This document shows positions 1,331-27,549 of a stretch of DNA of 32,000 bases, one piece after another. Within the stretch, counting starts at the first letter, position 1; each line of letters starts with the position of its first letter. This stretch comes from Candidatus Thalassarchaeaceae archaeon (lineage in GTDB: Archaea > Thermoplasmatota > Poseidoniia > Poseidoniales > Thalassarchaeaceae). A program made the translations under genes and the position numbers. The stretch spans positions 600,001 to 632,000 of the forward strand of contig JBJLBP010000001.1 in NCBI GenBank assembly GCA_045568075.1, given 5' to 3'. The notes under the pieces were generated by a model. That model did not search any database. It worked only from the letters and a program-made list of their open reading frames with translations, and had not been told where the DNA came from.

Positions 1331-1350
1331 AACCCGCTTACTGCGAGTCT

Positions 1351-1360
1351 AAGGAGGTGA
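1351..1360 (+). promoter_or_regulatory. Shine-Dalgarno box AAGGAGGTGA for atpD
   Basis: AAGGAGGTGA ends 4 nt before the atpD ATG at 1365. Confidence 0.7.
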
Positions 1361-1364
1361 ATGA

Positions 1365-1982: not shown

Positions 1983-2023
1983 TCGACGCTTCAAGAGACG
2001 ACTTGCGTCTTGCGCGGTTTGAT

Positions 2024-2060
2024 AGGTGGGTGCTTGAGTTCGCAACCACCGCAGGTGGTT
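2024..2060 (+). promoter_or_regulatory. Two mutually exclusive hairpins sharing one CCACC arm; the second sequesters the SD of the next gene
   Basis: GGTGG(2025-2029)...CCACC(2046-2050)...GGTGG(2054-2058). AACCACC(2044-2050)/GGTGGTT(2054-2060) is a perfect 7-bp stem with loop GCA. Alternatively 2025-2033 pairs with 2042-2050 (8 bp, 1 mismatch). The ATG is at 2068. Confidence 0.35.
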
Positions 2061-2067
2061 GAATCCC

Positions 2068-5471: not shown

Positions 5472-5472
5472 T

Positions 5473-7119
5473 TTACTCGCAATCGATGTTGTAGTGCAGC
5501 CCGACGTTTTCGCGCCGAGCGATTGAGGCTTCGATGACAAGCTCGGCGCAGATAATCAGATTTCGTAACTCGACCATGTCCTGAGTCGGCTTCGTAGCAT
5601 GCCAAATGGGTACTACTTCTGAGCGGATTTGGGCAATACGACGACTTGCTCTCTCAAGCCTAACATCGCTCTTCACCAGGCCGACGTCATTTGTCATCAT
5701 ACTGCGCAGCGCCAGTAAGTCGCTGCGAAGCGCTCCGTGTTCTGCCAATTCATCGAGGTCCTCACCCCGCCATCGGGTGATGTCCTCGACAATATCTGGT
5801 AGTAATTCACTCTCAGCTAGTCTGACGATGTCATCTGCAGCTCGCTCAGAATAGACAACTGCCTCAAGCAGCGAGTTCGAAGCCAATCGATTCGCACCGT
5901 GCAGTCCAGTCTGAGCAACCTCACCAATCGCATACAGACCAGGAAGAACATGACCATCGTGAAGGGCTCGTCCTTTCTCATCGACAGTAACCCCTCCTAC
6001 TAGGTAGTGAGCGGCGGGACGGACGGGGATTGGGTCTGGTCCGAGGTCAATTCCAAGTTCCGCTACCTTGCCAGCAATCGTGGGGAACTCGTCACGGAGC
6101 GCAGCGGAATCGAGATGTTCAGTCACCAGCAGGACATGTGAATCTCCACTACTCTTCAACTCGTGATCTGTAGCTCTCGCAACAACATCGCGAGTGTCGA
6201 GAGATCCTTTCTCGGAGTAGCGTTCCATGTACGAAGAAACCGCAGGTGAACCAGCCCCTGAAAAACCACCATCAGCCCTCCAAGATTCATACTCGGAACG
6301 AGTCATCAGAATTGCTCCGTGCCCTCGCATGGCCTCAGTGATCAAGAAAGGATTCTCGGAATCGACGGCCAAAGCCGTCGGGTGAAATTGTATGAATTCC
6401 ATATCGGAAACATCCGCACCAACCCGATGAGCCATCGCTACACCATCCCCTGTGGATACAGGAGGGTTGGTGGTAGCAAGGTGAAGCATTCCTGCTCCTC
6501 CAGAAGCCAGAACCACGCAGCGTGAAGCCAGCGTGTACACTTTGCCGTCTGGAGCCAAGCACCACAGTCCTGCAACACCAGCGGATGGATCATTCAAGTC
6601 GCGGCGAACAAGGTCGAGAACCATCCAATTTTCCAAAATGCGCAGACCTGATTCGTATTCTCCCGCAACGCCTCGAGTCAGGGCTCGCTCAATCTCAGCC
6701 CCAGTGCGGTCTCTCGAATGCAGTATCCTGCGCTCAGAGTGCCCGCCCTCACGTGTCAAATCATACAATCCGTCAGCACTCAAATCGAATTGAACTCCAT
6801 GTTCGATGAGGTCGCGGATGCGCAAAGCAGCCTCAGCAACGACAGAGCGCACAACGCCCTCATCGCACAAACCACCTCCAGAGGCCAAAGTATCGCGGAC
6901 ATGCGCTTCCAAGGCTTCCTCATCGTCAACCTCCAGAACTCCTGCGATACCACCTTGGGCCCAGTTTGTTGAGGAGGTAGAGAGGCTTTTCTTTGTGACG
7001 ATAGCGACCGACAAACCTGCACGAAAGCAACGAAGCGCTAGGAATAAACCAGCGATGCCCGAACCAATGACTGCTACATCGACCGGCGGCAGCGAACGAT
7101 TCGAATCATCCTCTGCCAT
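5473..7119 (-). CDS. nadB: L-aspartate oxidase
   Basis: VAVIGSGIAGL FAD fold; HSERRILHSRDRTGAEIERAL; GLYAIGEVAQTGLHGANRLASNSLLE. Length of 548 aa is typical. Confidence 0.9.
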   Translation of the reverse strand: MAEDDSNRSLPPVDVAVIGSGIAGLFLALRCFRAGLSVAIVTKKSLSTSSTNWAQGGIAGVLEVDDEEALEAHVRDTLASGGGLCDEGVVRSVVAEAALRIRDLIEHGVQFDLSADGLYDLTREGGHSERRILHSRDRTGAEIERALTRGVAGEYESGLRILENWMVLDLVRRDLNDPSAGVAGLWCLAPDGKVYTLASRCVVLASGGAGMLHLATTNPPVSTGDGVAMAHRVGADVSDMEFIQFHPTALAVDSENPFLITEAMRGHGAILMTRSEYESWRADGGFSGAGSPAVSSYMERYSEKGSLDTRDVVARATDHELKSSGDSHVLLVTEHLDSAALRDEFPTIAGKVAELGIDLGPDPIPVRPAAHYLVGGVTVDEKGRALHDGHVLPGLYAIGEVAQTGLHGANRLASNSLLEAVVYSERAADDIVRLAESELLPDIVEDITRWRGEDLDELAEHGALRSDLLALRSMMTNDVGLVKSDVRLERASRRIAQIRSEVVPIWHATKPTQDMVELRNLIICAELVIEASIARRENVGLHYNIDCE

Positions 7120-14560: not shown

Positions 14561-14591
14561 ATTATGTACTCATACGCCCGCGTATGTGATA

Positions 14592-15950
14592 ATGGCCGAA
14601 GGGGCTCCAAGCATTCTCGATCTGCCTCCATTGCGAGGCAACCCCTTCGACCTGAGGCCAATCGAGCCAAGCCGTGCAGAATACCTAGTTGGCCGCGACA
14701 AACTTGTCACGGAGTGGAGAGAGCATCTGATTTCTCAAACTCCGAGGATGCTCCTCCTGGTCGGCGACAGAGGCTCTGGTAGGACTTCTCTGCTCAACAC
14801 CCTCGCCTCTACCACATCTCGCCGACCATACATTGGGCAGTTTTGGCCCGAGGGTGATGACCCAGTTCAGGGTATAATCCATGAGTTGTCTGTGCATTTT
14901 GGAGGGTTCGAGATCCCACCTACGATGCAGCAGACCTCGGATAGGATGGTAGAAGTTCTTGACAAAGAGACTGGAACTCTGCCATTGATAGCCTTCGATT
15001 ACCCTGCTAAAATCGATCTAAATCCGATTCTCACACGCCTTTCTCCGTTACTTCAGAGGCTCCGCGCCCTAGTCGTAGTCGTGCTCACACCCTCTCAATT
15101 GGCTGGATTAGATGATGAGGTTCTCGAGATGTTTGATTCACCTCATCATCTTCAGAACCTCGATGAGAGGCAGATTCAGGTTCTGTCAAATCGTCGAATC
15201 GCCCGCTCAGCTAATCAGAAGTGGAACATTCGCCCGAATCTTTTGCAGGCGATTAAGCAGCATTCCGACGGCAATCCTCGCCGTGTTATTCGATTATTGC
15301 GTGATTTGGTTGACGAGCGCCATGATCCTCAGGAAGGAGGGGTACTCGAGCAATTGACAACTTGGCGGGCACCGCCAGTGCAGGATTCACCCCCAGTCGT
15401 GGCGGCTCCCGACAAACCTCAGCCCGCTGCAGAGACGATGGCGGAGCCTGAACCGGAGCCTGAACTGGAACCTGTCGTGGAAGATATTGAGGACATCACC
15501 TCCTATGCTCAGAAGGAAGAATCCGATGAAGAAGAGTACGCAGAGGAAGAAGAACTGGACGAAGAGCCAGATGACCTCTGGGGTGAGGAAGAAGAGGAAT
15601 TGGGCGATGAGGTTGCGGAACCTCCTACCTGGAACGATGAATTTGAGGCTCCTCAGGACATTTGGGGCGTCGATGATGCGCCGGAATCGGCAAGTGAAGA
15701 TGAGGAGAGCCGATTCCACCAAGCCGAGTTAGAATCGGAGTCTGAACCTCAGGAAGAATCGACCGAAGAATATCATCAATTTACTGAAGAGCCAGCTTTC
15801 CTCTACATGGAAGAGGGCACTGAACCCCCTAAATCCTCGCGGAAAGGCGGTAATTTCGGTCGCCTTCTCGGTCGAACCATCAGTGCTAATGACCGTATGC
15901 CGACGACTGGCGACGATACTCCAATCACCGTCGCAGACCAACATCACTAG
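14592..15950 (+). CDS. Orc1/Cdc6- or Arch_ATPase-like P-loop protein with Walker A Lys->Arg and a ~170-aa hyper-acidic C-terminal tail
   Basis: The track starts at GTG 14586; the ATG is at 14592. NPFDLRPIEP...YLVGRDKLVTEW...MLLLVGDRGSGRTSLLNTL (GxxGxGRTS instead of GxxGxGK[ST]). LPLIAFDYP is Walker-B-like. DGNPRRVIRLLRDLV resembles the sensor-2 GDAR.A..LL of Cdc6. The tail is rich in E/D/P. Confidence 0.6.
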   Translation: MAEGAPSILDLPPLRGNPFDLRPIEPSRAEYLVGRDKLVTEWREHLISQTPRMLLLVGDRGSGRTSLLNTLASTTSRRPYIGQFWPEGDDPVQGIIHELSVHFGGFEIPPTMQQTSDRMVEVLDKETGTLPLIAFDYPAKIDLNPILTRLSPLLQRLRALVVVVLTPSQLAGLDDEVLEMFDSPHHLQNLDERQIQVLSNRRIARSANQKWNIRPNLLQAIKQHSDGNPRRVIRLLRDLVDERHDPQEGGVLEQLTTWRAPPVQDSPPVVAAPDKPQPAAETMAEPEPEPELEPVVEDIEDITSYAQKEESDEEEYAEEEELDEEPDDLWGEEEEELGDEVAEPPTWNDEFEAPQDIWGVDDAPESASEDEESRFHQAELESESEPQEESTEEYHQFTEEPAFLYMEEGTEPPKSSRKGGNFGRLLGRTISANDRMPTTGDDTPITVADQHH

Positions 15951-15987
15951 CCTTGTTCCGAAGGCCCCGAAGACACCGGTGAGGGAG

Positions 15988-16710
15988 ATGGCTCCAGAGA
16001 GCGTCGAGGACGAAAACTCAGCTGCGAAGATCGATACAAGCGTTCGTGCAGGAGAGGAGGAACATGTCTTCCACGATAATCACGCATTGTGGGTCGTCGA
16101 TTCTGATTCGATGTCGACACTTCCCGATCCGCGAGCCTACAAGCCACCACCGCAACAGCCCGAGCCGAAGGTGCAAGAATTCGAAACCGAGTGGTTCGTT
16201 GCTGAAGGAGAAGAGGAAGAAGCACTTCCCGATGCAGAGTTTGAAGAGGATATCGAACCTTCTTTTGAGCCCGAACCAGAGTTCGAAGAAGTCGAGACCG
16301 AGGTCCCACCCCCAGCCTCTCAGATTCACATCCCTACGATTCCGACAAGCCCTCCGGCTGTAGCCCCACAGGCGATTAGCCCCCCCGCTCCTACTCCGGT
16401 GCCTGTACAGATTCCGGTTTCCTTAGGCCCAACTTGGGAGCCTGATGAGCCATTCAACCCAATCGTATTGCAAACACTAACCGAGGCCGAGAGAATGATA
16501 GTCGAGGCATCTTCCATGCGCGAAGTATCTCCTTCCGATGATGAATTACAAGCTCGCCTAGAGGTTGGGCGTTCCAGACTTTCGCAAATCTACAATGGAA
16601 TGCGACGCAAAGGCTTGCTCTCCGTCCGCAAACAAGGCCGCACGCGATACTTCAAACTCAGCGAGGCTGCAGGTCAGCACCTGCGCGGAGCACCTCAGGG
16701 GGTTGTATGA
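15988..16710 (+). CDS. Acidic/proline-rich protein with C-terminal winged helix-turn-helix
   Basis: The track ORF begins at 15883, overlapping the upstream gene. The in-frame ATG at 15988 follows GGTGAGGGAG. The C-terminus LTEAERMIVEASSMREVSPSDDELQARLEVGRSRLSQIYNGMRRKGLLSVRKQGRTRYFKLSEAA has the MarR/TrmB-like wHTH pattern (helix-turn-helix followed by a basic beta wing). Confidence 0.55.
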   Translation: MAPESVEDENSAAKIDTSVRAGEEEHVFHDNHALWVVDSDSMSTLPDPRAYKPPPQQPEPKVQEFETEWFVAEGEEEEALPDAEFEEDIEPSFEPEPEFEEVETEVPPPASQIHIPTIPTSPPAVAPQAISPPAPTPVPVQIPVSLGPTWEPDEPFNPIVLQTLTEAERMIVEASSMREVSPSDDELQARLEVGRSRLSQIYNGMRRKGLLSVRKQGRTRYFKLSEAAGQHLRGAPQGVV

Positions 16711-17006
16711 TGTCTGATGATGGTGCGACGGTCACGCGAGAAAAGGTCGAGCAGTATCTCGCTTTGACCGCCGAGGCGAGGGCGAAGGCTACACCGATAG
16801 CCAAGACCGATGTGGATGTAGCCCGCCTGACTTCGATGATGAGAATGTGCGATGACTACCAGGCTGATGCCAAGCACTTCCTAGAGCAAGGAGATTTGGT
16901 TAGAGCATTTGGAGCAATCAACTACGCCCATGCGTGGATTGATGCAGCAGTGAGAATTGGATTGATGGATGGGCATGATGATGATCGATTGTTCACATTG
17001 CCTTAG
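16707..17006 (+). CDS. DUF357-family small archaeal protein
   Basis: ATGA overlap with the upstream stop. DYQADAKHFLEQGDLVRAFGAINYAHAWIDAAVRIGL matches my recollection of the DUF357 helical-pair motif. Confidence 0.5.
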   Translation: MMSDDGATVTREKVEQYLALTAEARAKATPIAKTDVDVARLTSMMRMCDDYQADAKHFLEQGDLVRAFGAINYAHAWIDAAVRIGLMDGHDDDRLFTLP

Positions 17007-17017
17007 TTAGATTCTAA

Positions 17018-17022
17018 TTTTT
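17018..17022 (+). terminator. Oligo-T tract after the DUF357 gene (candidate archaeal terminator)
   Basis: TTTTT lies 12 nt after the TAG stop at 17004-17006, at the GC-to-AT composition switch. Confidence 0.3.
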
Positions 17023-17114
17023 ACTTAGCTTCTCCTTCTTCCTTTGATTTATGTATGCGTAAACGTAGTGAATCCAGTTTGTATTTATTGACGAAAGCCT
17101 CAATGATTAGTTTT

Positions 17115-18674
17115 CTATTTTCTCCGAACGAATCCCAAAAAGAAGCCCTCTGTTGCAGATATTTGCAGTCGATTATTGCTTCTTACAATATATCTTACAT
17201 TCGCCCTATCTGCCATGTGTTTCCTACGCCCTGTTTTAGAGTTGAATTCACTTAATGCCTCCTTTAGTGTAGTATTTAATTCGTTGAAAATCGGGCCATC
17301 AATCACGTTGATTGTCTTTTTCAATACAGGTAGGTCATACTTTTCTTTCAATAGGAACGAAAGATCAATCTTCACTGTAGAAGGTTGTTCAGATTCAATT
17401 AAATCCATCAATGCAAATTTTTTGTATAGCGATTCAAGGTATTTTTTATGGAATTCATCCGAGTTCTTCGTTAATCTTTGTTTTGATTGCTGAGCGTTAT
17501 TAGCCTCATCTCTGAGTTCATCAACTCGGGCACTAATTTCAGTCATCTTGTCATGTTTTTTTTGTGCCTTTTCTACAGAACTCATTACTTTCTTGTGAGA
17601 TTCTTCTTGTTTTTTCCTTACTTCTATAATGGCCTTTAGATTGCCTTCAAGTCTAGTGTTTTTCAATTCCACATCGATTTTCTTTCTATCTGCTTTTGAC
17701 TTCTTCACTAATTGGTTTAATTTATCTCTTTCTTCCTTTAATTTCTTTACCTCTATGATATGTTCTTTGACTTGGGCATTGATGCTATTTCTCAGTTTTA
17801 CTTTCTCTTTCACTTTGGAATTTTCTTCGTTTCTTTGATTTCTTCGATCTTTAACTAACTGTTTCAATTCTTTGAATAACTGCATTTTTTCCGATAATTT
17901 CAGGCGTCTCAAAGATTCAACCTCTTCATCATCCAACCTTAATGACGAGTGTTTCTCAATCCACTCGCCATCCTCGTAGGACCAGGTCTTGCCCTTGGGT
18001 GCGTGGCCCTTGGGGCGAGGGTTCTGAGCCTTGAGTGCAGCAAGCGCCTCACGCTCAGCTTTCTTCTCAGCCTTGGCGAGCTTCTTTGCCTCAGCTGCCT
18101 CAGCCTTGTCGAGCTTCTCCTCAGCTTTCTTGGCCGCTGCTACAGTGGGTGAGGATTGGGATTTTTCCGCTGTTTCATCGGAATCGATACCCTGTACAAT
18201 CACCAACTTATCTCCAAATTGAGGATTAGGAATAAATTCGTCATCAACGAAAATGAACCCGCATCGACCGTTCTTGTACCATTTATCAAATTCCTTTAGC
18301 TTGTTGCCTTTCAATTTCAAACGGTGATCTCGAAAAAGGTCGTTTGTTACAATAATTGCATTTTTACTCATTGCCCATGATAGCATGTATGCGTCATCAT
18401 CGCCAGATACTGGGATGATTACCCGATCCTTTTGTGGAATTTCACTCTCAAATGTCTCAATGTTTGCCATTATATGATCTGGTTTTTTTGGATTTCTAAG
18501 CTTCCTTTGCATAACAAAAACTTTGACATCATGACCTTCATTCTCCCAATACTTGTATGCTTCTACAGCACCCAGACCATCTCCTAGACTGTTTATATTT
18601 TGCAAAAAGTGACAAGCCACATTTGCACAGTCAAGGACAACTTTTCTTTTCGTTTTCTTACTCAATCTAATCAC
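17115..18674 (-). CDS. Zc3h12a/Regnase-type NYN (PIN-like) ribonuclease fused to a long K/E-rich coiled coil and an unknown C-terminal domain
   Basis: GTG start; no in-frame ATG upstream of the domain. Residues 11-150: KVVLDCANVA...VKVFV...IPVSGDDDAYMLSWA...AIIVTNDLFRDH...GFIFVDDEFIPNP. Residues ~245-425 carry heptad-like K/E repeats (KEERDKLNQLVKKSKADRKKIDVELK...). Confidence 0.75.
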   Translation of the reverse strand: MIRLSKKTKRKVVLDCANVACHFLQNINSLGDGLGAVEAYKYWENEGHDVKVFVMQRKLRNPKKPDHIMANIETFESEIPQKDRVIIPVSGDDDAYMLSWAMSKNAIIVTNDLFRDHRLKLKGNKLKEFDKWYKNGRCGFIFVDDEFIPNPQFGDKLVIVQGIDSDETAEKSQSSPTVAAAKKAEEKLDKAEAAEAKKLAKAEKKAEREALAALKAQNPRPKGHAPKGKTWSYEDGEWIEKHSSLRLDDEEVESLRRLKLSEKMQLFKELKQLVKDRRNQRNEENSKVKEKVKLRNSINAQVKEHIIEVKKLKEERDKLNQLVKKSKADRKKIDVELKNTRLEGNLKAIIEVRKKQEESHKKVMSSVEKAQKKHDKMTEISARVDELRDEANNAQQSKQRLTKNSDEFHKKYLESLYKKFALMDLIESEQPSTVKIDLSFLLKEKYDLPVLKKTINVIDGPIFNELNTTLKEALSEFNSKTGRRKHMADRANVRYIVRSNNRLQISATEGFFLGFVRRK

Positions 18675-18794
18675 GCGGCTTTCATTTTTGTGTCAGGTAA
18701 ATCGTAGACTAAGCTAGGAAGACCAACATGACTACAAAATCGGAGTATTATTAATTCTACGATTCATCAAATCACTACTGTATGCTGATTGAGA

Positions 18795-19451
18795 TCAGAA
18801 CTGTAAAGGAAATTCTTCATCCCCAATCCAGTATCGTTTGAGCAAACGATTTGAGTCATCAAGTATAGCAGTACGGCCATGTAGCATACGCCCATTATCT
18901 ACCACTAGACATTCTCCTGGATTGAGTTTTAAACACTCAGGAGTAGCCTCTTTCACTGCCTCGTTGAAAGCATCAAAAGCCAATTTTTGTTCATTCGATA
19001 ATTTCTCTTTAGCCAACCAAAATCCTGTTGGTTCAAATAATACTGAATAATATATTCTGTCACCAATTGAAGTCTCGTAAATTAGAGGATGATATCCTAA
19101 GTCACCCTTGAAAATAGCATGCTCCTTTAGATGGATGCTACGGAGGCACTCCCTTATTTCCGAACTCATGGATCTGAAAATACGCAAACCATCGACCATT
19201 ATTGACTGTCCACCCTTTGAGTCTTGAGTTATACAATGCCACAATATGTAATGGGATAAATGGTGATCGGTATGTGGTGGTAGACCTTCTGAAGAAGTCA
19301 CCAATGCAGGATTCGTTCTAACTATTCTAACGTCATTCTCCATGATGGTATAACCGAGGTGGCTTATCAATTCCGGAATGTCATAATTTTCAATTGAAAA
19401 CTGACTCCAACCTTGAAAATTCAAATCTTCCAATATGCGCTCAATCGTCAT
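18795..19451 (-). CDS. Small TauD/TfdA-family (gamma-butyrobetaine-hydroxylase-like) Fe(II)/2-oxoglutarate dioxygenase
   Basis: 218 aa. LPPHTDHH supplies the H-x-D iron ligands. CLVVDNGRMLHGRTA matches the family C-terminal DN.R.LHGR (distal His plus 2OG-binding Arg). Confidence 0.7.
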   Translation of the reverse strand: MTIERILEDLNFQGWSQFSIENYDIPELISHLGYTIMENDVRIVRTNPALVTSSEGLPPHTDHHLSHYILWHCITQDSKGGQSIMVDGLRIFRSMSSEIRECLRSIHLKEHAIFKGDLGYHPLIYETSIGDRIYYSVLFEPTGFWLAKEKLSNEQKLAFDAFNEAVKEATPECLKLNPGECLVVDNGRMLHGRTAILDDSNRLLKRYWIGDEEFPLQF

Positions 19452-19468
19452 TGCTATTATTACGCAAG

Positions 19469-19479
19469 AATTATATTTT
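19469..19479. promoter_or_regulatory. Single central TATA-like box in a 47-bp divergent intergenic region
   Basis: AATTATATTTT is centred at ~19474. The two start codons (19451 complement, 19499) have their midpoint at 19475, so the box is ~24 bp from each. This is consistent with two leaderless transcripts. Confidence 0.5.
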
Positions 19480-19498
19480 CATTTATTCCTGTCGGTTC

Positions 19499-19939
19499 AT
19501 GGCACAAGTAGTAACTGTCAACCTTCGAGACCGAGCCGTTCGTTCCGAAAACATACCTGAAGATTGGACTGAAGAGAAAATAGATGACGCAATTCAGCGT
19601 TATGAGAAATTCTTCCTATTGGCAGCAAAACACCCTGAGAAGTCGATAGCACCGACGAGAGATATAGATGAGATCTGGCATCTTCACATGCTCAGTCCGG
19701 TTGCTTATTACAGGGATTGCATCTCCCTGATGGGAAAAATCCTCGACCATGATGGTGGTTTTGGTGCAGTTCCAGAGGAGTTGCCACAACTCGAACAGAC
19801 ATTCATGAATACTTCGAAATTGTGGGAAGAAGAATATGGAACTCCTTATGTCGGGGATCCCGATACTCAATTGGATGATGATATGAAGAAATGTTGGCAT
19901 AATTGTCAGAGCAGATGTCACAATGCTTGCAAGTCCTGA
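19499..19939 (+). CDS. GRDP/DUF1399-like protein with C-terminal C-x3-C-x3-C-x3-C tail
   Basis: The track start (19394) would overlap the divergent gene; the in-frame ATG is at 19499. IAPTRDIDEIWHLHMLSPVAYYRDCISLMGKILDHD matches the GRDP-like core (P..dID..WH.H.L.p..Y..dC...g..l.H). The tail is KKCWHNCQSRCHNACKS. Confidence 0.6.
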   Translation: MAQVVTVNLRDRAVRSENIPEDWTEEKIDDAIQRYEKFFLLAAKHPEKSIAPTRDIDEIWHLHMLSPVAYYRDCISLMGKILDHDGGFGAVPEELPQLEQTFMNTSKLWEEEYGTPYVGDPDTQLDDDMKKCWHNCQSRCHNACKS

Positions 19940-19955
19940 GGCCCTCTGATTCAGT

Positions 19956-20351
19956 TCAACCGACCAAACGAAGCGAAGGCCCGCTTGTCACTTCGATATA
20001 CGAGCCGCCTGAACTAACCAATCGCTCCTTCAGTCTCCTGTCAACAGTCAAGACTGGCCAACCCGATTCAACTGAAAGCTCAACCAACATATCGTCAGTA
20101 TGCTTCATCCCTTCAATATCTGACATCTTCTCAGATCTCTGCTCAAGCAAGTCGAGTAGTAGACCGCCGCGTGTCTGCGACAATTTCTGTAATTCACTAT
20201 CCACTGAATCCAGAACCAACAATCTAGGGGCTCCAGCAACTGAAGCCATTGCAACGTCAAGATTCAATCTAGCATCGACCAATGCGACCCAGCCACAAGC
20301 GTCGATGAGGACGCTCGACATCACTTCACCCCGTGATGGTTCCATGACCAA
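19956..20351 (-). CDS. PIN-domain protein, Fcf1/Utp24-like (archaeal COG1412 type)
   Basis: VLIDACGW, LDSVDSELQKL, HTDDMLVEL and VLTVDRRLKERL give the four acidic PIN positions. It lies immediately downstream of aIF2-gamma, the conserved archaeal neighbourhood. The start is uncertain: 20351/20345 overlap the eif2g end, while Met11 at 20321 lies 5 nt after its stop. Confidence 0.7.
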   Translation of the reverse strand: MVMEPSRGEVMSSVLIDACGWVALVDARLNLDVAMASVAGAPRLLVLDSVDSELQKLSQTRGGLLLDLLEQRSEKMSDIEGMKHTDDMLVELSVESGWPVLTVDRRLKERLVSSGGSYIEVTSGPSLRLVG

Positions 20352-21573
20352 TTAGGCGCCAGCGCGTTCCGATGCGGCGTGAGAGTGTGATGCGGCTACC
20401 AGCTAGAGCGCAGATAGGAAGACGCAGGCGCAGTGTCGTCTTCTTGCCTTTGATTGCAGTGACCTGACCGACGCTTGTCGCCGTTGCCGAATTGACCATG
20501 AGCATCTCGTTCGGCTGTAGCGGGCGGACCTTTTCAGGTGCGTCATTTCCGCTCGCGACCATGTGCTCAAGCAGGTCAAGGTCGAGTTTGAATTCCTCCC
20601 AAATTGGAGGAAGTTCACCCTCGCGTGCCATAACTTGGCCAGACAAATCGTCAGCTTTCGTGACCATCGGATCCATTGGTGTGGCGACTCCACAGAGTCC
20701 ACCAGCGTGAATGGTCTCGAGGTCGAGCCCACCACCCTGAACCGATTCGATAACGGTCTTGATTGGTTCCCATCGAGTCTTGTTTCCTTCTTTGATTCGG
20801 CGACCGGGTGCGATGAGGATACTGTCGCCGACGGAGAATTCTCCCTTTACCACCGAGCCACCGATGATTCCACCGCGCAACTTCGCTGGTCTCGTACCTG
20901 GTCGATTGATGTCGAAGGAGCGAGCCACATACATCAGTGCCTCCTCCTTCTTACCGTGTTCCGGGGTAGGGATTGTCTCTTCAATCGCTTGAATCAAGAT
21001 GTCCAGATTGACATCATGGTGAGCAGAGATTGGGATGATCGGCGCGTTATCTGCGACGGTTCCTGAGATGAATTCCTTGATTTCGTTGTATGAATCGATG
21101 GCGCGCTCGCGAGACACAAGATCGATTTTGTTCTGAACAACAACCACATTCTCGATACCCGCGATTTGCAGTGCAGCCAGATGCTCACGAGTCTGTGGCT
21201 GCGGGCACTTCTCGGTTGCAGACACTAGAAGCAACGCGCCATCCATAATCGACGAGCCTGAAATCATCACAGCCATCAGCGTCTCGTGACCAGGCGCGTC
21301 GACGAAAGAGACGACTCGAAGCAATTCCTTCTCATTGTCTTCTTTCCCATCAGGGCGCTTGCCCTTTGGATAGAAATCCCCCTTCTTGGTTTTGTAAAAG
21401 GCGGTGTCGGCATAGCCGAGTTTGATGCTGATACCTCTCTTCCTCTCTTCGGAGTGGGTATCTGTCCAGACTCCGGAGAGAGCCCGTGTGAGCGTTGTTT
21501 TGCCGTGGTCGACGTGACCGACCATACCAATGTTGACTTCAGGCTGACTAGGGAGTTGACTTGCCAGACTCAT
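20326..21573 (-). CDS. eif2g: Translation initiation factor aIF2 gamma subunit
   Basis: QPEVNIGMVGHVDHGKTTL (G1), VDAPGHE (G3), VQNKIDL (G4), zinc-knuckle region, domains II/III. The track uses GTG 21591. ATG 21573 is preceded by AGGAG and gives the usual short N-terminus. Confidence 0.95.
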   Translation of the reverse strand: MSLASQLPSQPEVNIGMVGHVDHGKTTLTRALSGVWTDTHSEERKRGISIKLGYADTAFYKTKKGDFYPKGKRPDGKEDNEKELLRVVSFVDAPGHETLMAVMISGSSIMDGALLLVSATEKCPQPQTREHLAALQIAGIENVVVVQNKIDLVSRERAIDSYNEIKEFISGTVADNAPIIPISAHHDVNLDILIQAIEETIPTPEHGKKEEALMYVARSFDINRPGTRPAKLRGGIIGGSVVKGEFSVGDSILIAPGRRIKEGNKTRWEPIKTVIESVQGGGLDLETIHAGGLCGVATPMDPMVTKADDLSGQVMAREGELPPIWEEFKLDLDLLEHMVASGNDAPEKVRPLQPNEMLMVNSATATSVGQVTAIKGKKTTLRLRLPICALAGSRITLSRRIGTRWRLIGHGTITG

Positions 21574-21587
21574 CAACTCCTGCCGTT

Positions 21588-22085
21588 TCACTCCTCTTCG
21601 TCAGAGGACTTCTTGGCAGCGGCCTCTTCCTCGAGGCCGAAGATCACTGGCAGGGTTCGCTTCCCTGCCTCGACGACCTTCAGATTGATCTGACGTGTAT
21701 CTTGACTGATGACGTTGCCGCGGAGGTTGCGTCGGCGGCGGATTCCGTCGTACTTGTAGCGGTAGACTTGCGCGTTCTTCTTGACGTAGCGCTTGCCTTT
21801 GTAGCCGACTCCTGGTGAGACGAGGACCGACTTCACGCCGGGTCCATCGAGGTCCGGGCGCATTGCGCGACCGGTAACGTCGGAGCCGCCAGTAATTTCC
21901 AATTTGTAGCCAGAAAGTGATCCGTCACCCTCTCCCACAAACATGCCATCTACTGCGTCTCCGATGCTCTTGCCGAGGAAGTGATTGTAGTTCGAACCGG
22001 TGATATCTACCGAATATGAGCGACCGCCAGCGACGGGTCGAGTGTCGTTGATAACTGCCTTGAAGGCTTGTTCCTTGCGTGCCAT
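21588..22085 (-). CDS. rps6e: 30S ribosomal protein S6e
   Basis: MARKEQAFKAVINDT...GYKLEITGGSDVTGRAMRPDLDG...RRRRNLRGNVIS. ATG 22085 is preceded by AGGTGA (complement of 22090-22095). The 19-aa upstream extension in the track is unlikely. Confidence 0.9.
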   Translation of the reverse strand: MARKEQAFKAVINDTRPVAGGRSYSVDITGSNYNHFLGKSIGDAVDGMFVGEGDGSLSGYKLEITGGSDVTGRAMRPDLDGPGVKSVLVSPGVGYKGKRYVKKNAQVYRYKYDGIRRRRNLRGNVISQDTRQINLKVVEAGKRTLPVIFGLEEEAAAKKSSDEEE

Positions 22086-22154
22086 GATGTCACCTGAACG
22101 GGCGGGCGACGGGAGACCCCTATAAGAGCGGTTCGGAATCACCTACGGTGACAG

Positions 22155-23330
22155 TCAGCCCCGCAGCAATTCCCTTTCGATTCTGCTTTCGATGGTAGCG
22201 GGCGTTGTATTATTCATCGTAATGTGCTGAGTACGCCCTCGTCCAACGTTGGTTTTCGCTGCTCTCGTCTCGATCAAACCCTCCGTCTCAAGGGACTTCA
22301 GGTGCTTCCAGAATGTTGTGTAACTGCGAGCTTTGACCTCGTTTTCCTCGCAGACGAGCAGGTAGAGCTTCTGTGCATCCCCGCTCGACACCTCCTCTGA
22401 CTTCTTGAGGCGTCGGCAGATGCCGAGGAGAACCAGTTTCTGATGCAAAGAGAGATTGTCGACCGAACTCGGCTCCAGCGAAGACTTGCGCAGAGTACTG
22501 GGCCGGACATCCTCGGGCAGAACTTCGCCACGGCCGGCCTTCTCAGCGCGACGAATCGATGCGTCGAGTAGCTCGATAGCCATCCGAGCGTCGCCAGATT
22601 CGGCTGCGAAGCGGCCGATTTTAGCAAGAGTTTCGTCGGAGACGCTACCTGTTCTGCAGGCAATCTCGGAGCGCTGTGCAGCGATTCCGGTCAGAGTGTT
22701 AGCATCGTAGGGTTGCATCTCTATGAAATTCGATTGCCCCAATCGAGAGATGATGGCCGGCTCGAAGAGCTTGAGCAGGGTCGAGTTTTGACTGACGAGG
22801 ATTAGGGAGATTGAGCCCTGTTGTTCCCGAGCCTCGTCGATTCGTAGCAACTTGTAGATGATATCCGAAGAATCACGGTTGACTAGAACATCCGCCTCGT
22901 CGAGAATGAGCAGAAGGTGACTCTCGTGCGTGTGGAGGTTGCGGCGAATAGATTGGATGATTTCGCCCGAACTGAATCCTCTTTCGGGGTGTCGGGAATC
23001 GAGGCTGAGGGCAATCTGTTGCAGGACTTGTGAGCCGGTCGGATGATTGCGGCAGTTGACGTGAGTGATGACGATTCTTCGTCGACCGTCGAGATGGCGT
23101 TGGATGTCATCTGCAAAACGTTGGGTGAGGACGGTCTTACCCGAGCCGACCGGTCCCACAACTACGGCTCGACAACTCGTGTCGTGATTCTCAATCTGCG
23201 CGAATATAGACGCCATGTCGCTGAGTTCATCGTCACGACCGACCAAAGCAGGAGGGATCCAGTCGTAAGACAGGGGCCCTTTGTCAAGCAGGACTTTGCC
23301 TGCTCCGATGCGGTCGAGGTATCCAGCCAT
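22155..23330 (-). CDS. cdc6: Orc1/Cdc6 replication initiator
   Basis: LVGRDDEL, Walker A GPVGSGKTV, Walker B LLLILDEAD, sensor-2 SGDARMAIELLDAS, C-terminal winged helix (LHQKLVLLGI...LETEGLIETR). Confidence 0.95.
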   Translation of the reverse strand: MAGYLDRIGAGKVLLDKGPLSYDWIPPALVGRDDELSDMASIFAQIENHDTSCRAVVVGPVGSGKTVLTQRFADDIQRHLDGRRRIVITHVNCRNHPTGSQVLQQIALSLDSRHPERGFSSGEIIQSIRRNLHTHESHLLLILDEADVLVNRDSSDIIYKLLRIDEAREQQGSISLILVSQNSTLLKLFEPAIISRLGQSNFIEMQPYDANTLTGIAAQRSEIACRTGSVSDETLAKIGRFAAESGDARMAIELLDASIRRAEKAGRGEVLPEDVRPSTLRKSSLEPSSVDNLSLHQKLVLLGICRRLKKSEEVSSGDAQKLYLLVCEENEVKARSYTTFWKHLKSLETEGLIETRAAKTNVGRGRTQHITMNNTTPATIESRIERELLRG

Positions 23331-23374
23331 TCAACTGAGTCGTGCTCTCACCGTTCTTAGAGATATTTGCTGCA

Positions 23375-23412
23375 GCGCGCGCGCATACACACGCTTGTGA
23401 CGCGCGCGTGCG
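23375..23412. repeat. Alternating purine-pyrimidine (GC)n tracts forming an 8-bp all-GC hairpin
   Basis: GCGCGCGCGCATACACACGC (23375-23394) is 20 nt of perfect Pu/Py alternation. ACGCGCGCGTGCG lies at 23400-23412. 23376-23383 pairs with 23401-23408 (loop 17 nt). It sits between the dph2 stop (23423) and the cdc6 start (23330). A TATA-like AAATATC (complement of 23362-23368) follows. Confidence 0.6.
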
Positions 23413-23422
23413 AGGTGCCGAC

Positions 23423-24604
23423 TCATGGAATCTCGTCGAATTGGTAGCCGTTCTCCCACTGCTTCACGCCTAGGGAGACCTCAAGTTCGAAGGGGGTAAT
23501 CAACGGCTTGGCATACTTCACCGCGTCATCAATCGCGATTCGCGGGCAAGCGGTATTGACGAAAGCGTCGACCGGATAGAAATCAATCAGGTCCGGTCCG
23601 ACGTGGTCGAGAGCCAGAAGATATCCCTTCTTGCCGTGTTGTTCGAGAAGCCTCTTCATTCGAATCGCAAGGTTTCTCCTCATTTGTCCAGGCTTCTCGC
23701 CAATCAAAATGCCGAATGACATTGCATCATCAACCGAGAAAATCAACCCCATTCGCTGGCGTAGAATTCGCTCAATCCGCTCAAACGACATCTCGCTTGC
23801 CTCTCCGTTGTAAGGATCGAGAAGCGCCAGCGGCTTACCGGTGTGCATCACTAAGCCGATTGGATGGAAATCCCCTGAACCAAGGAAAATATAGTGTCCA
23901 ATCGAGGGGTCATCACCTGAGTAATTGCATCCCAGCACCTGCCCAGGGAAAGTCAGTCGAGCCCCGCCAACGGGAATCTCAACTTCGAATCCAGCCTTCT
24001 CTAAGCGCTCTTTGTATTCGGGCAATAGATGCAGGTGCTGAATCGAGCCAACCAATCCCAACTTAGTTCCAGAAAGAGGTGCGACGCGACCAACCGCGTC
24101 GACGAATCGCTCGCGCGCTTCGTCTTCGCTGAGATCAAACGGTGTTGAAGCCTCAGCGAGCCGAGATTCTGCGATTGCCTTGTGGCGAGCGAGGATAGGA
24201 ACAACGGGGTCAATTTCGGGGTCTCCATTGTAGGTTACTGGGATGAAATGAGTAGGCATTCCTGAATCGATATTCATTGCACTGTGTCCCATGTGAGCCA
24301 CTAATTCAACCCCCATCATGCGCATCTTATCGTGCACCAAATCACATGCCCCATAACACGGGTCAGCCGCTAGAACGACCTTCGCTTCGGAGTCTTCTTC
24401 GATCGAATCCATCATTTCGAGGGCCTGCATTTTCAGGCCCTCGGGAACTTGCAGAGCAACCAATCTGTGGTCGTTCTCTTTGATTCGCTCAACGAGGTCG
24501 TCGAGTTCGAAATCGTGGCGCTCCATGTCCATGTTGACCAATTCGCCGTCCGAGGTTCGGTATTTGAGCGGTTGCCTTGGACCGAAGGACCGATTATTCG
24601 ACAA
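23423..24604 (-). CDS. dph2: Diphthamide biosynthesis protein Dph2 (2-(3-amino-3-carboxypropyl)histidine synthase)
   Basis: RLVALQVPEGLK...VLAADPCYGACDL...VAHMGHSAM plus a repeated three-domain layout typical of archaeal Dph2. The start is uncertain: 24604 overlaps the hpt stop by 11 nt, with alternatives Met25/Met27 at 24532/24526. Confidence 0.85.
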   Translation of the reverse strand: MSNNRSFGPRQPLKYRTSDGELVNMDMERHDFELDDLVERIKENDHRLVALQVPEGLKMQALEMMDSIEEDSEAKVVLAADPCYGACDLVHDKMRMMGVELVAHMGHSAMNIDSGMPTHFIPVTYNGDPEIDPVVPILARHKAIAESRLAEASTPFDLSEDEARERFVDAVGRVAPLSGTKLGLVGSIQHLHLLPEYKERLEKAGFEVEIPVGGARLTFPGQVLGCNYSGDDPSIGHYIFLGSGDFHPIGLVMHTGKPLALLDPYNGEASEMSFERIERILRQRMGLIFSVDDAMSFGILIGEKPGQMRRNLAIRMKRLLEQHGKKGYLLALDHVGPDLIDFYPVDAFVNTACPRIAIDDAVKYAKPLITPFELEVSLGVKQWENGYQFDEIP

Positions 24605-25845: not shown

Positions 25846-26805
25846 TCAACCGGTGCGCAAACGCTCGCTCTCTCTTTGCACCAATCTTACTCCACTTACG
25901 ATGAGAATAAAGCCGGCGATAAGAGTCCAACCAACCTTCTCATTGAGCAACAAAACGCCACCAAGTACTCCGAAGACTGGCACCAAGAAGACATACGATG
26001 AGGCGGCTGTTGCACCCAATTTCTCGATGCCCATTGCGAACCAATAGTAAGCGATTACTGTGGAGAGTGCGCCGAGGTAAAGGATGGCGTACCAATCTGT
26101 CATCGTGGGTTCTGGAATACCATACTGCCAAGTCTCCCAAGCAGCCAACGGGGTGAGCATCACTGTCCCGATTAGTGAGTACCAAACGACGATTTCTAGC
26201 GTGCTCGCCTCCGCCTCACCTTTCCGACGTTCCATCATCCGCTTGGTCATGTTAGTTGTCATCGCCCAGTTCAACGAGGCGAGCAAGATCATGAAATCAC
26301 CTAGGATTCGATCCTCGAAAGGAATGTCTGTATTGGGACTCCAGCCGGTGACTACTGCTACTCCTACAAATCCGCAAGCAAGGCCAACGAACATCTTTCT
26401 TGAAATTGGTTGGCCGAGCAATGGAGCGGCTAGTAGAACAGTAAAAATTGGATTGAAAGTAATAATCAAAGATGCATCACCGGCTGCAGTAAATTGCATT
26501 CCATGCATGAAAAAGATCTGGTAACCTAGAACTCCTGTTAGCCCGATTAAAGTCAGTGTTTTCCAAGATTGTCGACCAGTAGGTAGCCAGTTGACTTTCT
26601 TTCCTTTGAGCGCTCGCGCGGCGAACCAGAGGTAGAACAGCACCATTGTCACGATGTACCTTAGCCAAGCACCAGTCATTGGAGGGAGGCCTAGTGCTAG
26701 TATTCTCCCAACCGCCCATGACAACCCCCAGATAAATGCGACAAGGAGCATCAATCCGTGGATGCTAAACTGCTTTCCATCACTCAACAGAAGCACCTCT
26801 TGCAA
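25846..26805 (-). CDS. EamA/DMT-family transporter (10 TM)
   Basis: Two EamA-like halves, with repeated hydrophobic helices (FIWGLSWAVGR..., YLGALSTVIAYYWFAMGIEKLGATAASSYVFLVPVFG). TTG start at 26805; the first ATG (26751) would truncate TM1. Confidence 0.8.
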   Translation of the reverse strand: MQEVLLLSDGKQFSIHGLMLLVAFIWGLSWAVGRILALGLPPMTGAWLRYIVTMVLFYLWFAARALKGKKVNWLPTGRQSWKTLTLIGLTGVLGYQIFFMHGMQFTAAGDASLIITFNPIFTVLLAAPLLGQPISRKMFVGLACGFVGVAVVTGWSPNTDIPFEDRILGDFMILLASLNWAMTTNMTKRMMERRKGEAEASTLEIVVWYSLIGTVMLTPLAAWETWQYGIPEPTMTDWYAILYLGALSTVIAYYWFAMGIEKLGATAASSYVFLVPVFGVLGGVLLLNEKVGWTLIAGFILIVSGVRLVQRESERLRTG

Positions 26806-26840
26806 CCCTATGTGAGTCTAGGTCAAATACTGTCCTAAGA

Positions 26841-27242
26841 TTACATCAGATGACTTAGAACACGTTCCCATGCCATTACTCCGAATACAACAATCGAAGA
26901 AATCAGCCACAAATTGTAAGCTGGTTTTGGAACTTCAATTTCCTTTACATCGATAATTCTTGGAATGATCGAACGTAGTGCAATGAAGACAAAAGCGAGG
27001 TAGATTAGTGGGGTGCCCAAGTTGAAATCGATAGCCGCTTGATAGTCGAAATGTGTCATCGCAACAAATCCTCTAGTCATACCACAGAATGGACATTGAT
27101 GTCCTGTCAGATGAAACCATGGACAAAGATTCAGACTATCCACTTCACCATGTGGGAGTATAGCAGAGGTAAGCAATGCCCCTGTGGCAATTGCACCTTC
27201 AATATCCTCCTTTGAAATGGAAAACCCTGAAAATTTCACCAT
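26841..27242 (-). CDS. DUF2752 membrane protein
   Basis: CPWFHLTGHQCPFCGMTRGF is the DUF2752 signature (C..k.ltG..CPgCG.TR). ATG 27242 is preferred over the track's TTG 27272. AT-rich gene. Confidence 0.7.
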   Translation of the reverse strand: MVKFSGFSISKEDIEGAIATGALLTSAILPHGEVDSLNLCPWFHLTGHQCPFCGMTRGFVAMTHFDYQAAIDFNLGTPLIYLAFVFIALRSIIPRIIDVKEIEVPKPAYNLWLISSIVVFGVMAWERVLSHLM

Positions 27243-27272
27243 TTTCCAACATCCTTCCTTCCAGACTTCCAA

Positions 27273-27314
27273 TTCTATGTTGACCTTATGCTGGAGTTTA
27301 ATTTAAACATAGAA
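27273..27314. repeat. 9-bp perfect inverted repeat bracketing the DUF2752/TM2 divergent promoter
   Basis: TTCTATGTT (27273-27281) and AACATAGAA (27306-27314). The 24-nt spacer contains TTTAATTTAAA. Confidence 0.6.
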
Positions 27315-27330
27315 CCGCCTCTCCAAGTTT

Positions 27331-27549
27331 ATGGAAGGAACTTCCGATAAAGACTGGACAACATTATTGATTTTGAGTATTCTACTCGGTGGACTAGGCG
27401 TGGACCATTTCTATGCCGGAAAGATAGGAACTGGTGTACTAAAGCTAATCACCGTAGGTGGTTGTGGAATTTGGGCAATATATGACATAATCATGGTCGC
27501 CACACAGAAATTTACCGACGGCGATGGAAATGTCATCACCAATCAGTGA
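27331..27549 (+). CDS. TM2-domain protein
   Basis: KDWTTLLILSILLGGLGVDHFYAGKIGTGVLKLITVGGCGIWAIYDIIMV is the TM2 two-helix motif. Confidence 0.8.
   Translation: MEGTSDKDWTTLLILSILLGGLGVDHFYAGKIGTGVLKLITVGGCGIWAIYDIIMVATQKFTDGDGNVITNQ

Follow-up and report, generated by a model that had tools for sequence, protein, structure and literature searches.

A low-GC islet of a Marine Group IIb archaeon carries a widespread TauD/GRDP-like gene pair and a separable NYN ribonuclease cassette

Do three AT-rich genes that lie side by side between core genes form one system and, if not, how did they come to share a site? This question is raised by a 32,000-nt stretch of the genome of a Marine Group IIb (MGIIb; Thalassarchaeaceae) archaeon (contig JBJLBP010000001.1, positions 600,001 to 632,000; hereafter the window), in which an islet at positions 17007-19955 separates a DUF357 gene from a PIN-domain gene. 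The islet encodes a fusion of an NYN ribonuclease (RNase) domain to a coiled coil (NYN-CC), a short TauD-fold protein resembling Fe(II)/2-oxoglutarate (2OG) oxygenases, and a GRDP-like (DUF1399-type) protein that ends in a cysteine-rich tail (Table 1). An initial annotation had taken the three genes for a single accessory system of foreign or fast-evolving origin. In our view, held with moderate confidence, the islet is best explained as the cargo of a hotspot, made up of two modules, a TauD/GRDP-like pair and an NYN-CC cassette, for which we propose separate roles.

The abrupt change in composition described in the initial annotation is evident from every measure that we applied. The GC content of the islet is 0.393, against 0.535 in the rest of the window and roughly 54% in the genome, and the islet is the minimum among all 3-kb segments of the stretch (mean 0.519, standard deviation 0.036). 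In 100-nt steps, GC falls from 0.53-0.57 to 0.34 near position 17000 and is back to about 0.50 at 19900-20000. GC at third codon positions is 0.35-0.41 in the three islet genes and 0.50-0.66 in nine flanking genes, and the codons AGA (41% of arginine codons in the islet vs 11% in the flanks), ATA (33% vs 6% for isoleucine), TTA (20% vs 5% for leucine), AAA (59% vs 31% for lysine) and GAA (59% vs 46% for glutamate) are all commoner in the islet, so that the reported change of codon dialect holds as well. Scans of the window found no tRNA and no match to an Rfam family, there is no integrase among its proteins, and the only terminal repeats are short matches at chance level; for tRNA, integrase and terminal repeats this is as first reported.

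Twelve window proteins were mapped onto 80 loci fetched via eIF2-gamma, all from Poseidoniales and mostly from Thalassarchaeaceae, the nearest being 95-99% identical. In none of them is there a gene for any islet protein. DUF357 and PIN are convergent genes, and their stop codons lie at most 25 nt apart in 57 loci and 26-60 nt apart in six more; the synteny test proposed in the initial annotation thus finds the DUF357 gene abutting the PIN-eIF2g-rps6e cluster in 63/80 islet-free relatives. One of them, L003 (eIF2-gamma 95%), aligns to the window up to 17002 and again from 19956, with 16-18 nt in between, which identifies the insert as window positions 17003-19955. Within the window's own clade (eIF2-gamma at least 86%), the junction is almost never empty. 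It carries at least eight alternative cargos, among them restriction-modification (R-M), Mokosh-like, glycosylation, MscS channel, RNase and oxygenase-pair cargos; the alternative inserts are all low in GC (0.31-0.45), contigs end within 60 nt of the PIN gene in four cases, and that of L006 stops short of DUF357. The islet is therefore cargo of the flexible genome, placed where the 3' ends of the converging DUF357 and PIN genes meet, and in the window's clade this junction is a hotspot whose accessory and defence cargo varies from strain to strain. Together with the shift in composition and codons, the empty site in relatives bears out the earlier reading of horizontally acquired accessory DNA.

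Flexible islands of marine bacteria and archaeal 'dark matter islands' between core genes have been described (e.g. PMC4158269). The hotspot resembles such islands and defence hotspots in its low GC, its fixed core-gene junction, its strain-specific content and its assembly breaks, as well as in the R-M, Mokosh-like and glycosylation cargo of sister genomes; it differs from flexible islands in spanning 0-10 kb between two convergent gene ends, with no tRNA and, in this allele, no integrase. An integrase-borne island and an integron cassette were also considered and rejected, the window holding no tRNA, no integrase and no terminal repeats, and the short repeat AAWCGTAGW flanking the NYN-CC cassette only. 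A serine recombinase occurs at the junction only in the L004 allele, whose 3.3-kb insert is a small mobile R-M element sharing the site of the window's islet.

Could the islet instead be native, either as a fast-evolving segment that has drifted towards AT or as a chimera of the assembly? The lack of an integrase, tRNA or terminal repeat in the window would suit this, as would the synonymous divergence (dS) of NYN-CC, which is close to that of the flanks in L081 and L090. The idea is, however, already contradicted, and we consider it highly improbable: 63/80 relatives have the empty site and others hold different cargo; the GRDP-like protein is under extreme purifying selection, with a nonsynonymous divergence (dN) of 0 against three haplotypes, and hence is not fast-evolving; the pair recurs with 62-100% identity at unrelated Poseidoniales loci and with 50-60% in Myxococcota; and the same junctions are present in the independent assemblies L091, L092, L106, L107 and L105.

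The last of these also separates the genes of the islet. By blastn, positions 9-765 of L105 correspond to window 16314-17071 and positions 773-6009 to window 18700-23936 (97.9% and 99.5% identity), and 7 nt stand in place of window 17072-18699. The gene order in L105 is DUF357, TauD, GRDP, PIN; its TauD and GRDP-like proteins are 100% identical to those of the window, and the RNase is absent. NYN-CC is therefore a cassette of one gene, whose presence or absence does not depend on that of the pair. Conversely, NYN-CC occupies the hotspot without TauD or GRDP-like genes in L090 (76% identical NYN-CC, in the order PIN, 6-kb glycosylation cluster, NYN-CC, DUF357), in L081 (78% identical, with the same right-hand arrangement as L090) and in L082-L089 (52% identical, in the order MscS, inverted NYN-CC, PIN). 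Outside the window, the full trio was found only in the near-identical strains L091, L092, L106 and L107. The cargo is a mosaic of two separable modules, the oxygenase pair and the NYN-CC cassette, and the earlier view of the three genes as one system is not supported by these alleles, nor by the remaining occurrences of the pair: about 39 bacterial loci, without exception, and about seven further lineage groups of archaea have it with no NYN gene.

A short repeat, AAWCGTAGW, marks the edges of the cassette: the window has four copies against 0.38 expected, and three of the four lie at cassette edges. Both direct copies are kept in the cassette-free L105, 7 nt apart (L105 756-838). The inner edge of the inverted AATCGTAGA pair coincides with the L105 deletion boundary and its outer edge with the end of homology to L081 and L090. 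The repeat is confined to window-type NYN-CC haplotypes; as a general recombination signal of the hotspot it was rejected, being missing from the boundaries of other cargos and of 52%-type NYN-CC.

The TauD/GRDP-like module is widespread. Homologues of the GRDP-like protein, of about 145-170 aa, are 62-100% identical in other Poseidoniales contexts, and identities of 46-60% are seen with homologues from Myxococcota (Sorangium, Nannocystaceae, Kofleriaceae), from Alphaproteobacteria and from many metagenomes. Look-ups, together with a scan of metagenomes for which a diverse alignment served as seed, gave 92 loci; the GRDP-like gene has a short TauD gene next to it in 87, and contig ends truncate four of the remaining five. 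The two genes are divergent in 50 loci (the archaeal type), co-directional, GRDP before TauD, in 29, and convergent in eight. All 50 archaeal-type loci have a spacing of 38-52 nt, and the 47-nt spacer of the window is probably a shared bidirectional promoter; in Sorangium L099 and L173 the two open reading frames (ORFs) overlap. Measured against the window copies, the two proteins rise and fall in identity together (Spearman 0.93, 58 distinct pairs). No third gene recurs beside the pair, apparent clusters being antisense shadow ORFs or neighbours in a single lineage, and the bacterial neighbourhoods are mixed (restriction/SNF2 helicases, a ParB-like nuclease, transposase, kinases, CBASS). These genomic comparisons show the pair behaving as a self-contained two-gene unit that is transferred, inherited and diverging together across Archaea and Bacteria and, as judged from gene linkage, the data show TauD and the GRDP-like protein to be functionally linked, obligately so.

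The GC content of the pair tracks that of its host (rho 0.79, range 0.38 to 0.73). It lies 0.09-0.16 under the flanks in the higher-GC MGIIb hosts (the window, L105, L108-L112, L116 and L093) and does not differ from the flanks where the Poseidoniales contig is itself low in GC, as in L096, L125, L137-L139 and L186. Moreover, the dS of the pair against L107 is 0.035-0.045, and that of flanking core genes is 3-10 times higher (0.13-0.56). This GC pattern and the low dS together point to a recent spread of the pair from low-GC relatives, and the pair most likely reached this genome recently, from low-GC Poseidoniales.

A viral origin was rejected as well, except perhaps for loci of the L160 type: IMG/VR yielded one degenerate orphan GRDP-like gene (L185) with a truncated tail and no TauD, and INPHARED phages no match. 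In the low-GC marine contigs L160, L155, L161, L162, L165, L148 and L166 the pair stands in runs of small co-directional ORFs of phage-like appearance, in which a single PHROG was matched (phrog_871, function unknown), and no sequenced phage carries the pair. On the chromosome of Sorangium sp. So ce861 (L099 3263-7076), the pair lies directly downstream of CBASS-like SLATT_4 and SMODS/AGS_C genes and near a DUF3854/DUF927 primase-like gene, a setting that is mobile or defence-like.

Of the co-occurrence that the initial annotation proposed to check for the three families, the link between TauD and GRDP-like genes is thus strong, whereas an NYN gene stands beside the pair in only three of about ten assessable archaeal lineage groups. 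The NYN genes concerned, NYN-CC in the window, NYN294 downstream of the GRDP-like gene in L186-L192 and L140/L141, and NYN433 convergent with it in L108/L110, are only distantly related to one another; NYN433 scores 24.9 bits on PF11977 (cutoff 23), and its KH and SAP matches are sub-threshold. In two of the three groups the NYN gene varies among close relatives. A protein of 73-78 aa with a weak DUF1737 match (E 0.005; L140 1193-1423, L186-L192) sometimes lies between the GRDP-like gene and NYN294 and is absent there in L186.

These juxtapositions raise the possibility of a facultative three-part system in Poseidoniales, in which the pair would use an NYN RNase as an exchangeable effector, the pair itself serving, for example, as an O2/Fe/2OG-dependent switch or modifier that gates the RNase. 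Three distantly related Zc3h12a-type NYN genes lie directly beside the pair at three loci and in three arrangements (TauD then the 519-aa NYN-CC in the window; GRDP, an optional 76-aa gene and NYN294 in L186-L192 and L140/L141; NYN433 in L108/L110); PF11977-type genes appear to be rare, with about 10 clusters for NYN-CC among 1.84 billion representatives; and the hotspot holds defence cargo in sister genomes. On the other hand, the pair stands alone in L105, despite flanks of 97.9-99.5% identity, in about 7/10 assessable groups of archaea and, among bacteria, in each of about 39 loci, NYN-CC stands alone in L081, L090 and L082-L089, and L109, L111 and L112 of the 92% group lack NYN433. The three islet proteins, NYN294 and NYN433 have no match among PADLOC-DB v2 profiles, be it at E<=0.01 or at E<=0.001, and cargo of sister genomes does match (MTase_II, MkoA). 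We regard such a system as rather unlikely, and the adjacency could reflect the plain co-residence of accessory genes in flexible islands; if real, it would partly vindicate the three-gene reading. The earlier remark that the islet matches no described defence, toxin-antitoxin or biosynthetic system stands in either case, neither PADLOC nor the literature offering one.

What, then, might each module do? The initial domain calls all lie above the Pfam cutoffs (23 bits for PF11977, 27 for PF02668 and 22.7 for PF07173). NYN-CC matches the RNase_Zc3h12a/NYN family with 49.1 bits over residues 9-150; the rest of the protein comprises a linker rich in Ala/Lys/Glu, a coiled coil that is charged and spans about 200 aa, and about 100 C-terminal residues that matched no known domain. 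Its best PDB sequence matches are KHNYN (4e-5) and ZC3H12A/C. The acidic motifs align with those of KHNYN 9s2d (the D of VVLDCANVA, the DDD of SGDDDAYML and the ND..RD of IVTNDLFRD), and the MCPIP1 motifs align likewise. With a domain above cutoff and conserved catalytic acidic motifs, NYN-CC resembles Regnase-1/MCPIP1 (ZC3H12A), KHNYN and N4BP1. It differs from Regnase-1 and KHNYN in having no Pfam match to a CCCH zinc finger or KH domain, and from eukaryotic NYN RNases in its coiled coil and unknown C-terminal part, and as an archaeal protein of a handful of clusters (about 10 at E<=1e-30) carried on a strain-variable cassette. IMG/VR scans for NYN-CC returned nothing.

Between strains, dN/dS of NYN-CC is 0.38-0.63, compared with 0-0.17 in the flanks, at a flank-like dS (0.11-0.20), which marks it as an older resident of the hotspot whose protein evolves fast. 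Conflict genes often evolve fast at the protein level. From its sequence, NYN-CC would be an active endoribonuclease for conflict, defence or RNA turnover, and one that the pair probably does not need. A type II toxin-antitoxin system was rejected, NYN-CC being alone in its cassette beside unrelated neighbours (UDP-glucose dehydrogenase, MscS, TauD) and no constant antitoxin gene. Within the NYN-CC gene, otherwise at a GC of 0.3-0.4, a GC-rich patch at 17900-18200 (0.50-0.62) encodes the linker, and alignments with the L081/L090 alleles break at roughly window 17950-18125, within this patch, which suggests a recombination- or indel-prone low-complexity segment.

The TauD protein matches PF02668 with 58.9 bits over profile positions 92-267 of 267, and H60, D62, H191, R202 and R206 are invariant in 18 homologues, so that a facial triad HxD...H (H60/D62/H191) and a 2OG-binding arginine are present. 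Its AlphaFold 2 (AF2) model has a mean predicted local distance difference test (pLDDT) score of 86 and forms a compact double-stranded beta-helix of the TauD/clavaminate-synthase type; in this model, the 218-aa protein is a compact but complete catalytic domain. Foldseek found 263 PDB matches at E<=1e-3, headed by BBOX1, TmpA, CarC, IsnB, OrfP, CAS and AtsK (template-modelling (TM) scores of 0.6-0.72, about 20% identity; E 1e-11 for the first four), and the best sequence match is TmpA (NCBIfam 2.5e-14; PDB 6npb 1.1e-5), with whose HTD and LH(A/G)R motifs the iron-site residues align. By profile, triad and fold, TauD is thus a putative Fe(II)/2OG oxygenase, which shares its Pfam match, triad, 2OG arginine and predicted beta-helix fold (TM about 0.7) with TmpA, BBOX1 and CarC and differs from them in being encoded with a GRDP-like partner, which none of those enzymes has.

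Its substrate is less apparent. All NCBIfam scores (35-53 bits) fall below the cutoffs of 268-450, so that no named equivalog is assigned (TmpA 52.9 vs 400 bits, GBBH 39.8 vs 415, TMLD 35.6 vs 268). About 55 residues precede the HxD motif, with no extra domain, and by inspection no aromatic residues occur there where GBBH and TmpA have their trimethylammonium cage. In length (218 aa), in lacking an N-terminal Zn (DUF971) domain, in its roughly 20% identity and in having no evident cage, the protein differs from GBBH, TMLH and TmpA, and a GBBH/TmpA-like substrate was rejected. Relatives found by NCBIfam and Foldseek include the arginine/guanidino hydroxylases VioC, GntD, OrfP and CAS.

For the GRDP-like protein, the upstream TTG first taken as its start was corrected to the ATG at 19499, which gives 146 aa and matches the length of homologues. 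The protein matches PF07173 with 44.9 bits, at profile positions 94-143 of 143 only (53-143 in homologues). The AF2 model (pLDDT 82) shows an all-alpha domain at residues 1-120, mostly above 90, with a tail below 50 that is predicted to be disordered. PDB sequence, profile and Foldseek searches returned no solved-structure relative and, with Pfam, no HD-domain or other enzyme-family match. Foldseek does retrieve predicted GRDP-like models of Klosneuvirinae and Orpheovirus (E 7e-5, TM about 0.6). Residues D56, W59, H60, H62, D72, D82, H83, D84 and E93 are invariant in the folded part, and the tail follows the pattern C-W-H-[DN]-C-x-x-R-C-x-x-x-C, in which the four cysteines and the arginine do not vary across an alignment of 28 sequences and are kept by nearly all of some 120 homologues, and tryptophan and histidine are frequent and not invariant (variants such as CTRNCVSRCQRAC).

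The protein shares with plant GRDP1/GRDP2 (DUF1399) and giant-virus GRDP-like proteins the C-terminal PF07173 part, including the WHxH...Y..DC motif. Unlike the plant proteins, it is prokaryotic, single-domain and without a glycine-rich region, and no Gly-rich stretch occurs in its 146 aa, so that it belongs to the family only by its domain; its subfamily is set apart by the Cx3Cx3Cx3C tail and the obligate TauD neighbour. In the literature, plant GRDPs are known only from growth and stress phenotypes. A search for DUF1399, GRDP-like, UCP032817, IPR009836 and PF27765 returned plant, fungal and genome-survey papers only, with no prokaryotic member, and no paper, solved structure or curated family function was found for the pair. 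Plasmids carry only distant subfamilies without the Cys4 tail, which keep the motif WHxH...Y..DC...H...FG. On an Azospirillum ramasamyi plasmid (L195 3393-5412), a GRDP-like gene with another Cys tail (...CGDTEARGCKSQNCP) is followed by genes for an S-adenosylmethionine methyltransferase and a TauD/TfdA protein, and on a Stanieria plasmid (L194 3405-5614) a GRDP-like gene leads a small operon, followed in order by genes for a 43-aa Cys peptide with two FCFL motifs, a methyltransferase and a 197-aa unknown protein.

The mechanism that we tentatively favour, though with less than even confidence, is that the oxygenase oxidatively modifies the tail of its partner. TauD and the GRDP-like protein would form an obligate two-protein oxygenase, in which the helical domain holds out the flexible Cx3Cx3Cx3C(+Arg) tail to the minimal TauD, whose active site is open; the tail would then be modified, perhaps by hydroxylation at or next to the invariant arginine or by a Cys-based cross-link, to give a matured, probably metal- or redox-active protein tail. 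The arginine flanked by cysteines is a candidate target because several relatives (VioC, GntD, OrfP, CAS) act on arginine or guanidino substrates, and Fe/2OG enzymes that modify ribosomal peptides are established (PMC12186529). A supporting hint comes from the Azospirillum operon, which pairs a distant Cys-tailed GRDP-like protein with a methyltransferase and a TauD. A cluster for a ribosomally made peptide with post-translational modifications (RiPP) was rejected, as the tail is invariant rather than variable, no peptidase or transporter recurs, and the adjacent oxygenase is the only tailoring-type enzyme.

Tail modification has two serious rivals. In the first, the pair would be a two-enzyme small-molecule cascade, in which TauD hydroxylates a small polar substrate and the GRDP-like protein, as a second, His/Asp-metal enzyme, processes the product, comparable to TmpA-TmpB, PhnY-PhnZ and SmaO-SmaX. 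Fe/2OG hydroxylases tightly paired with small helical His/Asp-metal oxygenases are known, SmaO acting on a ribosomal peptide (PMC12186529), and the pair resembles these systems in the conserved adjacency of an Fe/2OG hydroxylase and a small all-alpha His/Asp protein. TmpA is the best sequence match of TauD and among its top structural matches, the GRDP-like H60, H62, H83, D56, D72, D82, D84 and E93 are invariant, with a motif kept in tail-less subfamilies, and purifying selection and a host-like GC in most hosts would suit a metabolic role. The partner nevertheless belongs to a different family from TmpB, PhnZ and SmaX (DUF1399), with no HD domain and no enzyme-family match (Pfam, PDB, Foldseek), and it bears a Cys4 tail that those partners lack and that a cascade leaves unexplained; furthermore, the NCBIfam scores of TauD are far under the equivalog cutoffs (53 vs 400), its apparent want of aromatics upstream of HxD speaks against a trimethylammonium cage, and no transporter or further pathway genes lie nearby. 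We consider this reading possible though improbable.

In the second rival, to which we assign a still lower probability, the GRDP-like protein would be an accessory subunit, a metallochaperone or a redox or regulatory partner, which, with a tail serving for the binding of Fe, Zn or Cu or for electron transfer, keeps the oxygenase loaded or reduced, while the oxygenase acts on some other substrate. Invariant cysteines at i, i+4, i+8 and i+12 of a flexible tail, with frequent His and Trp, would fit such a role; gene coupling and overlapping ORFs suggest a 1:1 stoichiometry; and there is a precedent in a plant GRDP that is reported to boost the activity of a partner enzyme via direct interaction (PMC13001069). 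Against this, the tail His and Trp are not invariant (e.g. CTRNCVSRCQRAC), Fe/2OG enzymes generally do not need chaperones, and the GRDP-like protein is unlike known metallochaperones in PDB sequence and Foldseek comparisons.

Returning to our preferred account of two modules and a modified tail, several points weigh against it. The comparison material throughout consists of metagenome contigs and metagenome-assembled genomes. TauD and the GRDP-like protein were each modelled as a single protein, and the entry of the tail into the oxygenase is something that we infer. The GRDP-like fold has a conserved set of its own (H60, H62, H83, D56, D72, D82, D84) and pairs with TauD also in subfamilies without this tail, so that an enzyme or metal-binding subunit fits at least as well as a substrate, and an invariant 'core' and the missing protease or exporter are atypical for RiPP-like substrates. 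As for the second module, the presence of three unrelated NYN RNases beside the pair argues that the RNase may not be fully independent, and a defence role for NYN-CC finds no support in PADLOC.

Table 1. Features of the islet and its edges in the window, and alternative cargos at the same junction in other loci
Feature	Locus	Position	Strand	Evidence or content
Low-GC islet, insert relative to the empty DUF357/PIN junction	Window	17007..19955		GC 0.393 vs 0.535; L003 empty-site alignment
DUF357 gene, left (core) hotspot edge; convergent with PIN at the empty site	Window	16707..17006	+	PF04010 1.3e-18; syntenic in 70/80 loci
AAACGTAGT, left-hand one of the short repeats that bracket the NYN-CC cassette	Window	17061..17069	+	
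NYN-CC cassette, absent from near-identical haplotype L105	Window	17072..18699		blastn vs L105
NYN-CC gene, 519 aa	Window	17115..18674	-	PF11977 6.4e-13
Two inverted copies of AATCGTAGA in the NYN-CC/TauD spacer, 47 nt apart	Window	18700-18708; 18756-18764	+; -	
TauD-fold Fe(II)/2OG oxygenase (putative), minimal, 218 aa	Window	18795..19451	-	PF02668 9.8e-16
AT-rich divergent spacer between TauD and GRDP-like genes, 47 nt	Window	19452..19498		Sequence read
GRDP-like (DUF1399-type) gene, 146 aa	Window	19499..19939	+	PF07173 2.4e-11
Invariant tail CWHNCQSRCHNACKS (Cx3Cx3Cx3C plus Arg) of the GRDP-like protein	Window	19892..19936	+	
PIN-domain gene, right (core) hotspot edge; overlaps eIF2-gamma	Window	19956..20351	-	Syntenic in 78/80 loci
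Cargo, 3.3 kb	L004	11634-14950		Serine recombinase (Resolvase 2.6e-30), type II DNA methyltransferase (PADLOC 4e-42), 212-aa candidate endonuclease
Cargo, >9 kb	L006	2789-12421		MkoA-like superfamily 1 helicase (PADLOC 4.6e-71; Mokosh-type), two large unknown proteins, radical-SAM/4Fe-4S activase-like protein
Cargo	L009			MscS channel
Cargo	L010			Secreted and AhpC-like proteins
Cargo	L012 and L055			Small membrane protein (L055 outside the clade, eIF2-gamma 75%)
Cargo	L013			95-aa protein

Some further features lie at the edges of the islet or elsewhere in the window. The PIN gene matches PIN_9 with 2.3e-5 and 25.0 bits, slightly under the cutoff of 26.3 bits. Upstream of the DUF357 gene, at 14586-16710, two genes, one for a 454-aa AAA/STAND-like NTPase whose tail is long and acidic, the other for an acidic, Pro-rich 275-aa protein, are syntenic yet quickly diverging across Poseidoniales (35-74% identity vs 75-95% for their neighbours). 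A second low-GC dip, at 26841-27549 (GC 0.42-0.45 over about 26500-27500), lies between an EamA transporter gene and a MutS-like gene and may be another small flexible islet; its two small membrane-protein genes encode a DUF2752 protein of 143 aa (PF10825 1.5e-12, minus strand) and a TM2-domain protein of 72 aa (PF05154 2.2e-18, plus strand), the latter gene also occurring near the pair in L104.

The islet itself is of an ordinary kind, a small flexible-genome hotspot, and for Marine Group II archaea, which are uncultured, it provides a clean, well-resolved example. Of greater value is the TauD/GRDP-like pair, a widespread and undescribed two-gene oxygenase module that extends from archaea to Myxococcota, Alphaproteobacteria and low-GC marine contigs, and that would open DUF1399/GRDP to biochemical study for the first time. 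That NYN RNases turn up beside it repeatedly may in turn serve as a lead to conflict systems of archaea, of which the catalogue is poor. In a bolder reading, which we put forward as speculation and think unlikely to hold in full, the pair would be a self-contained and hitherto unrecognised protein-maturation or sensing device, spread over Archaea, Bacteria and mobile DNA, in which TauD marks the invariant Cys4-Arg tail of the GRDP-like protein in a manner dependent on O2, Fe and 2OG and for which Poseidoniales would have repeatedly recruited different NYN endoribonucleases as outputs. If true, the DUF1399/GRDP domain, known from plants and giant viruses too, would thereby gain its first biochemical function.

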